DNA of 64,000 nt from Antedon mediterranea (taxonomy: Eukaryota; Animalia; Echinodermata), in NCBI RefSeq assembly GCF_964355755.1, contig NC_092671.1:12090001-12154000 (forward strand), given 5' to 3'. Below, piece after piece: positions 3,381 to 51,719 of this stretch. The notes beneath the pieces are model-generated. The model had not been told where the DNA came from. It searched no databases and saw nothing but the letters and a program-made list of their open reading frames with translations. Both the position numbers and the translations under genes were made by a program. Position 1 is the first letter of the stretch; every line of letters begins with the position of its first letter.

Positions 3381-4414
3381 ATGGTTCGAATTTTGATTGC
3401 TTTGTACGTGTTTCTGTTTTTAAACAACGTAATGTTAGAGGCTGCTGGTGGTTAGTAATTATGATTATTATTATTTTTTTACATTTTGTAGGCCTAAGCC
3501 AAATTTTTTATTTTTTTTTAGAGGGTAACCCTCTCAGAAATTACATTTATAACATATAAAATTACACATCCTCATATGTAAGTGTGTGTATTCCAAAACA
3601 ACGTTCAATAAATTTGGCAAGCTATGCCGTTTCATTTTTTTTGTAGTTTTAATTGTTTAATTTTCTTTATATAGATTCAAAACCATGCGACCCAAATCCA
3701 TGTGAATTCACTTGTAATGAGCTTAAAAGTGGAGACCAGGGTTACACATGCACCAAACCTACAAAACTTAAATCTAAGTCACGTACGATTTGTTTGAATT
3801 GATTAAACTTTAATTAGGCCTACATCACATCTTGAGAACGAGTCGCACTGTAAATAATTTTAAATTAAATAAATAATCACGACGCATTTGGTCATCGTCG
3901 CTTGTGATTGGTCAACTCACTTGAGTTGCGTCTATATATGTCACTGCGTTGCGTCCAAGAGAGCTTTTGTGAAATTAACAACCAAATTCAATTCATGGTT
4001 GGAAAGGGCAGTTATATTAACATTTCAATTATAACCACAAGTATTCTCCAGATGCATACAGTAACCAGTATCATGATTACTACCATACTTTTTACTTGGC
4101 AAAATATAGTATAGTACTTTCTTTGTATGTTAGCACGGTACCGCCTACAATTTTCAAATTATTATTCTGAAAATGTCGGTGTAATGTATACTTACAGAAC
4201 ATGCCTATTGAAATTCAAGAAAATTGGTTTGTTATAAAATTTATATTCTTTTAACATGGTCCGAAATATCAACATGCGTCCTCTGTTTCAATATTATATT
4301 TATATTTTTTTAAGTACTTCACTCAGTTTCTGAGTGCTTTCATTTATTATTTCAATGATTCTTTTAGATCTTAATGCGATGTTCATCAGTAGGGGTGATG
4401 CTAAACACGATTAG
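3381..4414 (+). CDS. xGD-family paralogue 1: secreted 4-Cys EGF-like peptide with RGD tail (74 aa)
   Basis: Exons 3381-3450, 3675-3782, 4368-4414; GT-AG, phase-1 introns. Protein MVRILIALYVFLFLNNVMLEAAG-DSKPCDPNPCEFTCNELKSGDQGYTCTKPTKLKSKS-HLNAMFISRGDAKHD*. Upstream non-coding exon donor atcag/gtatgt near 2967; AATAAA near 4545. Confidence 0.85.
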
Positions 4415-5313
4415 AAGTAATTCTGATCCAGCTGTACTATGCAAGCCATAGTACAAATACAGAAACGAAGCACAATAGGAGAATGGTCGATAACGCCTTT
4501 GCAAATGTATTCTTATTGATATTATATTAAAGTATATGAAAGAAAATAAATGCAACAAAACTATTCTTAGGCCTATTGTCAATGTGTATTTTTTAATTTT
4601 GCCGAGGAGTCCGTGCTAAAAAAACAACAGTAACTAATTATAATTAAAGTAAATCAAAAGGCATTTCATTTACATAATTTTACATTGTTTGCCACAACTT
4701 TGTCAGTAATGGTGACTGTTGATAGAAATCAATTATCACACTCATTTTGGACTAGAACTCATGGTCCTACAAAAAATGCATAGCATTGTCAGACTATATC
4801 GTAAATGAATATCTTAGATTACCTTACCTTGATCAAAGTATAACCTAAGATAACGTGTTATGTTTGACAACTCTGTGCAATACCTGTGAACTTAACATTT
4901 AAAAGTATAGGCCTATGTTAGGGATATACGAATTCTCACTACGGTAACTTTTGCTAGAAAACTCGACGTCGATAGTTACATACAACAACATGAATAAAAT
5001 AATTGGCAATCAAAGGATTGTGCAGAAAGTCTATGAGAAGTGTTTGAAGAAATGATTTTTAGTTATGAATATTGACGGCAATAAAGAACACAAGTAAAAT
5101 TAACTGTCTTCTTTATTTATCGTTGAACATGTGAAATAAGTTACGGTATCTAGGCCTAAAATAATAGTAAATTGTTAAACAGATCTGAAATAAAAATGTA
5201 CTTACTTTGTATCGTTATTCAATTCAATTTCAAAATGGCCGATATATAAATTGTGTTTTATCAGGGAAACTGAGTAAATTGTATTATCTCATTATTCATC
5301 TTGTAATACAAAC

Positions 5314-5314
<1 letters not shown>

Positions 5315-5394
<80 letters not shown>
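5315..5394. repeat. (TA)n microsatellite
   Basis: About 40 TA units visible directly. Confidence 0.99.
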
Positions 5395-5396
<2 letters not shown>

Positions 5397-5910
5397 TTGT
5401 TTATTAATTCCCTATTGAAAGAAAATTAATTCATGGCACAAAACAGTTGAAGAAACTGTCAATTGTTAATGTTTTAAAACAGTCTCGACATTTTATCGAC
5501 TCTTTTGGTAGTTTCTACGTACAATTGAAATAAGTGATGATTTTGATTGACAATATTGTCAATTTATGTCTATTTTTATTAGACCTATAGTGGTTTCTTT
5601 TTACAGTTGATAAGTAGCAACTTATTTAGTCAGTGACGACGAAAAGTCAACCAGTCAAATGTTCCTTTCCAAGTCTCAAGTTATTGTCTTTATGTCATTA
5701 AGTACGTTTTAATTTTTTGTCTGAATCATCTGATCTAAACTATCGGAAACGAACAAGGAATAACAAAAGTAAAACTGTTACAGTGCTAATATTTTATTCC
5801 TGTTATCGTAAGTATTTTATAATTTTCATTTATACTCTTAGGCCTATGTTAATTACGATTTTAATGTCGAAAAGTGAGAACAGTTAGATGGTCATGGCGC
5901 AAAGATTTAG

Positions 5911-48509: not shown

Positions 48510-49393
48510 CGCGATTTTTTTTTTCGTACATAAGTTGGGGACCCCTTCATGAAACGTCACAAAATAAACATGAATAATTCATCAGTTAAATTTGTTGTTC
48601 CGTGTGCACCCAAGCGTATAGCAACAAGAAGTGATTACACAACTGCGATACGATACTTTCTACAGTAGGCCTAGGATTCTAAGTAAATTCACGTGATTGC
48701 CTTCGCGCACTCTTCTTCACACAAAATGTGTCGAGTCGAGGCTAATCGACAGCTAGGCAAGTACGGCAAGACATTAAACTAAGTAGTAATTCATTGGACA
48801 TAGCCCAAAGAAAGCTTAGACCCACAAGAATAAAGAATGTGTATAATTTGTGTACTGTGTTTTTTTAATTCTGCTATTTTATTATCAAACAATATGCATG
48901 TACTCAAAGGAACTTTAAAAATGCGCGTATATGAACACATGAGATGGGAAGATTTGACCCACGAGAATAAAAATGTATACACTATAGTGTAACTATCTTT
49001 GGTCATACCTAACACACACACGTCACACACACCCACACAGCTACTACTAGAATAGACATGGGTTTAGAGACTAATAATTAGGCCTAATAGTATTAATAGA
49101 AACTATAGTTTTAACACGTAATTCTTTAGTAAAAAATTATATTGAAAACACCATAAACTAAAGGCTGATTATTTCGACAATCCACACAAAACGCCGCTAT
49201 TCTTCTATGAAATCGCACGCCGCAACAACAGCGGAGATAGGCCTAGAATCGTACCGCACTTGTGTAATCACTTCTTGTTGCTATACGCTTGGGTGCACAC
49301 GGAACAAGAAAATTTAATTGATGAATTATTCATGTTTATTTTGTGACGTTTCATGAGGGGGTCCCCAACTTATGTACGAAAAAAAAAATCGCG
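48510..49393. mobile_element. Non-autonomous TIR element in the rDNA IGS with a 7-bp TSD
   Basis: TIRs of about 140 bp (cgcgattttttttttcgtacataagttgggg.../...ccccaacttatgtacgaaaaaaaaaatcgcg). gcccggc is duplicated at 48503-48509 and 49394-49400. The empty site is visible near 38050-38070. Confidence 0.88.
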
Positions 49394-49608
49394 GCCCGGC
49401 CCGCCTAAGCTCGCACCGTCTGTAGCCTATGCTAGGCTAGCCTAGGCCTGGTCTCTGATCTGATCAATGATAGAGATCACCAAGAGATTTAAATTGTTCT
49501 CACGCGAGAACAATTAATTCATAGTTTGGAAAAATGTCAGTTCGTATGTGTAGTGGTAGTGTAACAATCAATCTAACAATTTCCCTTGCAATTATGATTT
49601 TGGTTTAG

Positions 49609-49895
49609 GCGATGCATGTAACCTTTCGTCTGAACCAAATAAAACTTGTGTGTACATGGTGATAGGTGATGATAATGGTGATTACCAATGTATTATGAAA
49701 GTAAATACCAGTATGTGTTTGTTTAAAGATTAACATACTATTCCATTGTTTGCTTTTCTGAGCGAAGATATAATTATCCTAATTGTTATATTACGTATAT
49801 TCTATTTTCTAGAGCTTCCTATGCTTTTCGTCAGTAGAGGAGATCGTAGGAGCAAAACAGTTTTAACAGTTTTGCAAGCATTAATTAAAGACTAG
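49609..49895 (+). pseudogene. xGD-family paralogue 6, right Cys exon copy plus RGD tail exon
   Basis: Exons 49609-49710 (GDACNLSSEPNKTCVYMVIGDDNGDYQCIMKVNT) and 49813-49895 (KLPMLFVSRGDRRSKTVLTVLQALIKD*). AATAAA near 49950. No adjacent signal exon. Confidence 0.7.
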
Positions 49896-50849
49896 TTAGC
49901 ATGAGAAGAAATGCATTTGTAAAATGTATTGAAATGTATTATGGCAAGAAATAAATGCAAAAAACATGATATGATATTGATTGTTTTTCCTATATTGTTA
50001 TTGTCATAAAATATGAAAGTACAATAATGTGTTTCTTTCTACATAGTGGTATGAACGTACTTATTTTACACATTTTATATATTTTTAAAACTGTATCTAA
50101 TCTATATTTCTAAATTATAGGATTACCAATTAAATTACAATGCATTTCTATAACTTAGTTAAAATTATAGCCTAAGGATTTTAAATGATTTAAATTTGAA
50201 CCGTTTTCCTTTTCTACATATTGAGCAAATAACAACCATACATTTAAAACAGACGAACTATTAATGACATATAAAATATACTAATGCTCAAGTCTCAAGG
50301 TTAAAGTGTAATTTCAATAAACTCACTCGGTTTGAAATTTGTTAGGACACTTTTTTAAATCACTCATAATAGTACGCTATCTCGAATATAATTTATACAA
50401 ATCGTTTTGAAATTGCAAGAATTAAAATAACAAACAGAATAATTAAAATGTTTGATGAAAAGCTGTTATACTAACTATTTAATTGAGTCAATAAAAATAA
50501 ATAAATATATAATGTAAATTTACCTTGAAAATGTTGTATTTATCACCAAATAAAAAATTCTGGAATTAAAATCGTTTTATTAACATGAACATATTATTCG
50601 CTTTGAACATTTTAACTATAACAGACCGGTCGGCAATTGGAACCGCAATTCTATCAGGTAGGCCATGTACAAATTATTTCTTGTACTTTTTTAACTACAG
50701 AATGATTAGCAGGCTACACTACAAGACAAATAACTATTCCAAAAAAATAGACTAAAGAGAAAGCGAAAGTTAATGTGAATAGGTCGGGTTTAAATAGATA
50801 ATAATAATAATAGGAACTTTCGGATTTTATTTATTTTTTTTTTTAGAAA

Positions 50850-51719
50850 ATGGCTCGTCGAGTTTGTATTGCTTTAGCATTGTTGTTCGTAATGTTTGCA
50901 TTTGCGAAGAGCGACGGTTTGTAAATTCTGTATTCTTTATTTGTTATTTATCAAGCAACATTGTGCGAGAAAAATAAATATATAAAATGTCTCTTTCCAC
51001 TGAATTTCCTGCAATTGTCTTACTAACTATACTTTTCCAGTATTCAGAATGTCTTCAACATTAATTGCTTTTTGTTTTTTTTTTTAATATTAATTGTTCT
51101 CACACTGCCGCGTTATCTTACATTGCATTTGTGTTGCTTTTTTGATGATATTGATTAAACTCTGAAGAATTGTACCGAAATTAGCAAGTTGTCCTAAATT
51201 CCACAACCTCTAGATTACCTTGCTGGTTCATACTTCAAGATGACCGAGCTTGTGATGATTGCTAACTAATCTAACTAAGGTAAAAAAAGACTCACGTGAG
51301 AGTCCCACGCAAGGACCATTACGTCATGTATATAAATGTTGGTAAGCCTAAAACAAAGCAAAAACAATGCGCATTAGCAAATCATCCGTTAATTATAATT
51401 ATGTTTTGATTTAGAAGGAGAAACAAATCCATGTGATGTATGTAAATCCATTGCCAATTCAATTTGTAATGATAAAGGAAATGGCGATTACGAATGTCTG
51501 ACTGTTGGTATGTGTATGTATGGTTTGATAGTTTATTTTTAAAATTTGATTTAGATAGTTATTTTCATTATTTATTGTTTGTTTATAAGCTCAAGTATAG
51601 TGTGATCTAGCTTTTTTAAATTCAGTCATCACAGTAGGACGAATTTTTTCTTTTCAGAGACTCGACCCGAACTTATGAATTCCATGTTTGTCAGTTGGGG
51701 AGATAGTCTTCATGACTAA
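50850..51719 (+). CDS. xGD-family paralogue 7: WGD tail (73 aa)
   Basis: Exons 50850-50916, 51415-51507, 51658-51719; phase-1 introns. Protein MARRVCIALALLFVMFAFAKSD-EGETNPCDVCKSIANSICNDKGNGDYECLTV-ETRPELMNSMFVSWGDSLHD*. Non-coding exon donor near 50657; AATAAA near 51838. Confidence 0.87.

Follow-up and report, generated by a model that had tools for sequence, protein, structure and literature searches.

What is encoded by the row of very short exons in a 64,000-nucleotide stretch of Antedon mediterranea DNA (contig NC_092671.1, positions 12,090,001 to 12,154,000; hereafter the window), and what could the F-x-S/T-x-G-D tail that recurs in them be doing? A first-pass annotation had proposed seven paralogous genes for secreted four-cysteine (Cys) mini-proteins, to which we have assigned the letters A to G in window order. 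It is virtually certain that the cluster genes are real. Splice joints in A, B and D bear out the proposal of a tandem family of spliced genes for small proteins, probably secreted, whose core resembles an EGF module up to its fourth Cys and whose tail may be a functional site.

The evidence that carries this answer comes from contigs of run X1, which is not recorded as RNA and is taken as such by guess; it belongs to a study separate from the four near-full runs. The GT-AG joints of these contigs imply that spliced molecules are present in X1. The contigs show the presence of joints, not their absence, and 14 joints are listed in total. Run X2, which is DNA, served as the control for the joints of B and D, all of which have a depth of 0 there, and the joints of A were tabulated from X1 alone. 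At the predicted junctions, joints were seen in both coding introns of A (2/2), both of D (2/2) and all three of B (3/3), plus the GC-AG first intron of B. Gene A (plus strand) consists of a signal-peptide exon at 3323-3450 (modelled with its ATG at 3381 and a phase-1 donor; joint 3450/3675, 0 mismatches), a four-Cys exon at 3675-3782 (Cys spacing 4-3-11, phase 1-1, RNA joints on both sides) and an RNA-joined last exon at 4368-4981 with an Arg-Gly-Asp (RGD) tail, a stop at 4414 and a 3′ untranslated region reaching to at least 4981. Both coding joints lie on one 850-nucleotide (nt) X1 contig with 0 mismatches. Gene D (plus strand) has a signal exon at 13131-13200 (ATG 13134; RNA joint with 23 letters on the signal-exon side), a four-Cys exon at 13694-13768 (spacing 4-3-7, phase 1-1, RNA joints on both sides) and an RNA-joined tail exon at 13929-14011, which encodes an acidic linker and an AGD tail. 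The coding introns of A, B and D are all in phase 1, and the spliced frames close at 74, 79 and 74 amino acids (aa), respectively; the exons are therefore not parts of a larger protein.

Gene B, on the minus strand, is the outlier of the cluster. The first-pass annotation had started it near 7262 with an MAR or MVR opening; its ATG really lies at 7488, in a signal exon at 7425-7514 (RNA joint 7512/8109 and sequence), and the opening is not of that type. This exon is preceded by a non-coding exon ending at 8111 and by a first intron at 7515-8110 (minus strand) with a GC donor, which is joined in RNA. An extra 39-nt exon at 6933-6971 (C-x2-C-x4-CC, with four Cys in 13 codons and a vicinal pair; RNA joints on both sides), missing from the earlier annotation and below the length that the family searches require, is followed by the RNA-joined four-Cys exon at 6250-6342 (spacing 3-5-9, phase 1-1) and by an RNA-joined tail exon, whose coding part at 5911-5954 encodes a degenerate tail ending in W-A-D and a C-terminal Gly. 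Thus B has five exons, four joints in X1, one of them GC-AG, and 8 Cys in all. Against the family profile, its tail ranks 47 among 80,684 six-frame 8-mers, and B is possibly a distant family member.

How far is one design shared? A six-frame scan found the signal starts, Cys blocks and tails again at the annotated positions, and profile searches with nhmmer, made for family copies within the window, returned five signal exons (none for F), six Cys exons (two of them belonging to F, none to E) and six tails, with no copies beyond the known ones. Signal exons with 67-73 coding nt and a hydrophobic stretch start at 3381, 10158, 13134, 15417 and 50850, as had been claimed, in A, C, D, E and G but not in F. 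The claimed four-Cys phase-1 exon is present in A, B, D and G, but F has three Cys, E has none, and C has no in-frame family acceptor for its block. The full design (signal, four-Cys exon and F-x-S/T-x-G-D tail) therefore stands in three of the seven genes, A, D and G, while B, C, E and F deviate from it. Gene G (plus strand) is known from DNA alone: its signal exon (50847-50916, ATG 50850), four-Cys exon (51415-51507, spacing 2-7-9, phase 1-1) and WGD tail exon (51658-51719) close, under the splicing rules that hold for the others, a frame of 73 aa. When the mature parts of A, D and G are aligned with one another, z is 5.5-10.5, a level that none of 1000 shuffles reached. For A, D, E, F and G, the profiles recovered the AATAAA block said to be shared; the contig of A nevertheless extends to 4981, beyond the block. 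A common non-coding first exon is not supported, as the A contig continues unspliced through the AG at 3362 back to 3323. Signal peptides were judged by a hydrophobicity heuristic: the 11-residue Kyte-Doolittle maxima of A, B, D, E and G reach 2.65-3.44 at the N-terminus but never exceed 0.91 further on, and from this hydrophobic N-terminus with no second hydrophobic stretch, the sequences point to proteins that are very probably secreted.

The tail motif is also more frequent than shuffled sequence would give. It occurs nine times in 34.5 kb of AT-rich flanks (animal DNA of 28-39% GC, the GC-rich middle of the window being fragmented ribosomal DNA (rDNA)), against a null mean of 0.33-0.38 and a maximum of 3-4 (200 and 100 Markov shuffles), and a phase-1 acceptor precedes five of the nine against none in 100 shuffles; gene A misses this strict filter, yet it is joined in RNA. 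Because the motif was picked after the data had been seen, the null flatters its enrichment, and the RNA joints are the stronger evidence. Three further matches (4699-4716, 52574-52591 and, on the minus strand, 49476-49493) have no splice acceptor and are regarded as chance occurrences; the first falls within the 3′ untranslated region of A.

Two of the incomplete members bear on the reading of the family. Gene C (plus strand) has a signal-like exon at 10144-10230 (ATG 10158, DNA only), with Asn and Arg inside its hydrophobic stretch, a four-Cys block at 10561-10636 (spacing 4-5-8, from sequence) and a KGD tail exon at 10847-10884 (DNA only). No phase-1 AG lies ahead of Cys1, splicing from the family donor to either of the two acceptor AGs tested leads out of frame to a short product, and the frame is opened by a non-family donor only, so that C is likely a broken gene. 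An X2 contig over it (10073-11084) differs from the window by 12 gap letters, and the other allele may differ. Relics of the flanks of A (2232-2868 and 4593-4680) recur upstream of C at 8431-9291 with 72-87% identity, which suggests that C arose from an A-like unit. Gene E (plus strand, DNA only) has a signal exon at 15414-15483 (ATG 15417), 86% identical to that of G over 72 nt, and a WGD tail exon at 16090-16142; the nhmmer profiles and an exon scan found no Cys exon in its 606-nt intron, and its predicted product is a Cys-free protein of 39 aa, that is, a signal peptide and 18 residues. For C and E there is no joint among those listed from X1, which, the data being presence-only, is not evidence of silence.

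The sequence of the C block points to a probable kinship of the core. This block is the closest to a Notch EGF repeat: in a PDB sequence search, 14 of 23 residues are identical with an EGF repeat of Notch1 (E 0.013 for the best domain and 8.3e-5 for the whole chain), and EGF-bearing proteins, with repeats of Notch2 and factor VII among them, make up the majority of the 29 PDB sequences at E <=10. In Pfam, the block covers positions 1-22 of the 32 in EGF (PF00008; E 0.0085, 16.8 bits against a cut-off of 21.5), and B and F gave no Pfam EGF match. The half-EGF scaffold suggested earlier is thus likely. A, D and G are tied to C by the shared exon class (nhmmer) and by the 58% identity of A with C over aligned residues. 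In the Atlas search, nine of the ten best matches of A that have a family share one family or clan, with EGF among the matches listed, scores of 0.84-0.85 making this a lead only; B gave nothing there (0.75). In the AlphaFold model of A (predicted local distance difference test, pLDDT, 59), a hairpin has Cys3 on one strand and Cys4 on the other, and a β-hairpin in the B model (pLDDT 79) is arranged likewise. Fold searches gave no match at Z >=2 for the A model and none significant for the B model, which says nothing about novelty. A Pfam match of A to SLR1-BP (below cut-off, E 0.0004 with intron flanks and 0.032 without), as well as saposin, OmTx3 and Csy1 matches, was discarded as Cys-spacing noise.

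The RNA-joined A and D carry four Cys in all, none of them in the tail exon, against the six of an EGF domain; with Cys5 and Cys6 absent, their core is by definition not an EGF domain. The 1-3 and 2-4 disulfides of EGF are self-contained, however, so a half module with two bridges is a likely structure. Judging from the sequence matches, the core was probably derived from an EGF module.

The tail is the other half of the question. Its F, G and D are invariant in six of six plus-strand units, with the Gly codon varying silently (GGT, GGC or GGA), and its Asp lies 3-5 residues before the stop in five of the six (overall range 3-16). The residue ahead of G-D, to which the first-pass annotation had paid no attention, gives the tripeptides RGD (A and F), KGD (C), WGD (E and G) and AGD (D). 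Since no other part is common to all six plus-strand units, the Cys-free E included, we have read the tail as the working end, and a functional site there is a reasonably likely interpretation of the sequences. In RGD ligands, the Asp contacts the metal site of the receptor. The active disintegrin motifs include RGD, KGD and WGD (PMC3386632), and one of these listed tripeptides is present in five of the six plus-strand tails, D having AGD and B none. The tick protein variabilin is a four-Cys, 5-kDa integrin-blocking RGD protein with its RGD outside any Cys-flanked loop (PMC3386632), and sea-urchin coelomocytes express integrins together with a diverse RGD-bearing immune family (PMC3342357). 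By analogy, an integrin-type receptor is a conceivable target of the tail, though we hold this only tentatively.

Taken together, these features suggest a provisional model, to which we give somewhat less than even credence. The spliced genes would give proteins of some 50 residues in the mature form, likely secreted, with a half-EGF core, paired Cys1-Cys3 and Cys2-Cys4 around a β-hairpin, and an exposed F-x-S/T-x-G-D tail. The family would have originated when a Notch-type EGF exon lost the part beyond Cys4 and acquired a new last exon behind it, and the cluster would have expanded by tandem duplication and now be losing members (C, F and perhaps E) in a birth-and-death process. The invariant tail Asp would contact the metal site of the receptor, and in soluble form the proteins would modulate cell adhesion. 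In its most specific form, the proposal is that these are new soluble integrin ligands, built from a halved Notch-type EGF exon and an X-G-D tail in which X (R, K, W or A) tunes selectivity, convergent with the disintegrins of snakes and ticks, with E as the bare tail; this form we consider possible but doubtful. If it is true, the disintegrin code would have been reached by an animal not known as venomous or blood-feeding.

A number of observations weigh against this proposal. To our knowledge, the invariant upstream Phe and Ser/Thr are not a known feature of RGD ligands, and the motif lies after the last Cys, outside any Cys-flanked loop. The K and W codons are one base from an Arg codon, so that drift explains the set of tripeptides equally well. 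The residue ahead of G-D is free, and the expressed gene D has Ala there, which is outside the disintegrin list consulted in PMC3386632; Pfam gave no disintegrin match in the family. On the side of the core, neither Pfam nor the PDB sequences gave an EGF match for A, D or G, the best one coming from the likely broken gene C, and the 18-residue product of E is a prediction only. B fits poorly, too: its tail is without G-D, the alignment of its mature part with those of A (z 0.3), D (-0.9), G (2.2) and E (2.7) is weak or absent, and none of the family exon profiles matches it at the DNA level.

Other functions were therefore considered. One is that these are small matrix, skeleton or adhesive proteins, with an acidic core for binding calcium or mineral and a tail that docks a matrix partner rather than an integrin. 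The mature parts of D, G and B are indeed strongly acidic (D+E 10, 11 and 10 against K+R 1, 3 and 3), although that of A is neutral (8 basic and 7 acidic residues). The B model gave weak Foldseek rows for the follistatin modules of SPARC and Fstl1, but the rows of its list, among them 2v53, 1nub, 6jza and 1g26, are all at E above 1 and not significant. The tandem clusters of small acidic RGD proteins in vertebrate mineral tissues, SIBLING/SCPP, are a precedent. The present proteins contain no repeats or low-complexity tracts, and on balance a matrix role seems unlikely.

Could the tail instead be a peptide hormone or neuropeptide, perhaps released or amidated, that activates a G protein-coupled or other receptor, with the Cys core as its carrier? 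As far as is known, neuropeptide precursors tend to be conserved and encoded by single genes, unlike those of a tandem cluster. B, C and D end in a C-terminal Gly, a possible amidation signal, which is however absent in A, E and G. The layout and 39-aa length of E equal those of the sea-cucumber stichopin precursor (PMC3432112). Neuropeptide precursors are expected to have a signal peptide and peptides bounded by dibasic sites (PMC9793003), but the mature A, B, D, E and G contain no dibasic site, and a motif search found no match among the crinoid neuropeptide precursors in seven supplementary files of PMC9793003. We regard this function, too, as rather improbable.

A defensive, toxin-like or antimicrobial role would make the variable Cys loops the active part and the tail a folding or sorting signal. 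It fits the tandem birth-and-death pattern, and arachnid toxins include two-disulfide hairpin folds (PMC4942781), but the spider-toxin rows in the fold searches are at noise (Z 2.0, root-mean-square deviation 4.2, 29 residues aligned). The pooled proportions of nonsynonymous and synonymous differences (pN/pS) are 0.37/0.52 in the signal, 0.43/0.51 in the Cys and 0.41/0.62 in the tail exons, values that are uncorrected, short, near saturation and pooled over all pairs except those with F1. The Cys exons thus have the highest ratio of the three classes, yet pN is below pS in every one, which does not bear out the rapidly diversifying effectors that the first-pass annotation had envisaged; positive selection is not seen in the pooled values, with which episodic selection remains compatible. 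The acidic charge argues against cationic antimicrobials, and E retains the tail without the core, leaving a defensive role with little likelihood. Least probable of all are degenerate ErbB/EGFR ligands or decoys with a decayed Cys5-Cys6 loop as the tail: the hallmark of ErbB ligands, a splice site between Cys4 and Cys5 (PMC1618406), is matched by the phase-1 intron 2-10 residues after Cys4 that is RNA-joined in A, B and D, but Cys5, Cys6 and a transmembrane segment, which belong to the definition in that paper, are all missing, and the best match is to Notch and clotting-factor repeats, with no ErbB ligand among the 29 PDB sequences.

The remaining member, gene F (plus strand, DNA), is split. 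A first three-Cys exon copy (F1, 18564-18665) is followed by repeats with no tail exon, and a second copy (F2, 49609-49710, spacing 9-13) is followed by an RGD tail exon at 49813-49895; the two copies differ at 4 positions in 33 codons (3 replacement, 1 silent), and no signal exon was found by the nhmmer profiles or the exon scan. Between them, at 20348-49457, lies an rDNA block of about 29 kb, fragmented, partly inverted and interspersed with short satellites (15 Rfam rRNA matches). The block, whose 18S piece looks echinoderm-like, holds partial copies of small-subunit, 5.8S and large-subunit genes on both strands, 97-100% alike and with deletions, as well as GCCTA runs and 9-bp satellites (171 copies at 26497-28036), and it is flanked by two copies of a piece of gene F of about 280 bp (18412-18692 and 49458-49737). 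This arrangement may be an orphon insertion or an assembly join.

An upstream block that ends in a donor-like site (12243-12543, plus strand, DNA) is shared as well, with relatives at 16307-16704, 17393-17795, 50469-50664 and, more weakly, 2898-2974, five copies in all. From its sequence it may be a promoter or first exon. No joint leaving it is among those listed from X1, and X1 gave no cover over the putative first exon of D (bin 12417-12893), which is not evidence of silence. The copies at 16307-16704 and 17393-17795 are 95%-identical blocks in tandem ahead of F, after which no signal exon was found. Where the F signal exon would be expected, 18270-18345 shows a tRNA A/B box-like pattern, which we take to be possibly a short interspersed nuclear element; ARAGORN found no tRNA there. 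The window also carries a broken long interspersed nuclear element (LINE)-type retroelement on the minus strand (55129-56353 and on to about 58500), whose reverse transcriptase piece has relatives in other assemblies at 52-66% identity with one outlier at 38%, and elements resembling miniature inverted-repeat transposable elements with long inverted ends at 11360-12147 (between C and D), 59257-59873 and 56434-58043.

Is the family already known? The homologue queries were the Cys-exon translations only, without signal or tail parts, which reduces the sensitivity of the search. With them, collections of 5.8 and 1.84 billion protein sequences yielded no homologue: a word-indexed search gave no candidate of 12-86 aa and 39 candidates of 87-2000 aa, none at E <=10, and a full HMMER scan of 1.84 billion representatives gave three matches, all long proteins, which were rejected as sums of five or six weak stretches with unrelated Pfam domains. 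A PDB profile search gave 0 matches, NCBIfam 0 of 7, and no Pfam or NCBIfam family scored above its cut-off. That no named family had been recognized is in keeping with these database searches, and at the points on which the first-pass annotation had said it could fail, joints exist, the frames close at 74-79 aa and no family match appears. The six tail hexamers matched only unrelated literature text. No description of such a family was found in the literature, a provisional result since sequences often sit in figures, supplements or subscription papers beyond the search; for a half-EGF module standing by itself with a linear X-G-D tail, we could thus, provisionally, find no published description. 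Clusters of small Cys-rich secreted proteins are in themselves a common kind. The present genes lie below the usual open reading frame and annotation limits, yet three are spliced, and they would show how shifting a single splice site can cut a six-Cys module in half and leave a secreted mini-protein that stands alone. Should the tail bind integrins, they would offer a natural series of small adhesion modulators, easily made and assayed, with a bearing on wound closure, immune-cell clumping and the control of connective tissue in invertebrates; otherwise they add another lineage-specific example to the clusters of this common kind.

Several known systems can be set beside this family. The sea-urchin SpTransformer (Sp185/333) proteins are likewise clustered, diverse, lineage-restricted and secreted and have an RGD motif, but they have two exons, the second a Gly-/His-rich mosaic, are much longer and have no Cys scaffold described in the accessible part of PMC3342357, whereas the present family has at least three coding exons and a Cys core. 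PCNP6, 7 and 18 (PMC9793003) and stichopin (PMC3432112) are also small secreted Cys-containing echinoderm peptides; the three PCNPs carry dibasic sites and differ in sequence by inspection (PMC9793003), and PCNP18, which like B has 8 Cys in about 60 residues and is amidated, was rejected as a relative of B on the same ground of sequence. A four-Cys module with a predicted hairpin is shared with the FOLN of SPARC and Fstl1, the N-terminal half of granulin and disulfide-directed hairpin peptides, but Pfam gave no FOLN match in the family, and, unlike in the follistatin domain, no Kazal or EC domain follows, the spliced frames ending in a short tail. Variabilin, the short XGD antagonists and the snake disintegrins (PMC3386632) have in common with it a secretion that is probable here, a size of about 5 kDa and the RGD/KGD/WGD variation, and variabilin also the four Cys and the RGD outside the Cys loop. 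They differ in that no sequence relationship was seen, none having been tested, and that here there is no ADAM/SVMP precursor and nothing that points to venom or blood-feeding, while an invariant F-x-S/T stands upstream and one expressed member has AGD. With the EGF repeats of Notch and the clotting factors (PF00008; PDB 9b3n, 5mwb and 5kxh), the family shares the Cys1-Cys4 spacing, the N-P-C and G-Y-x-C words, the phase 1-1 exon and the predicted Cys3-Cys4 hairpin, but Cys5 and Cys6 are missing, and in place of a multidomain array there is a stand-alone precursor of 73-74 aa with a new linear tail.

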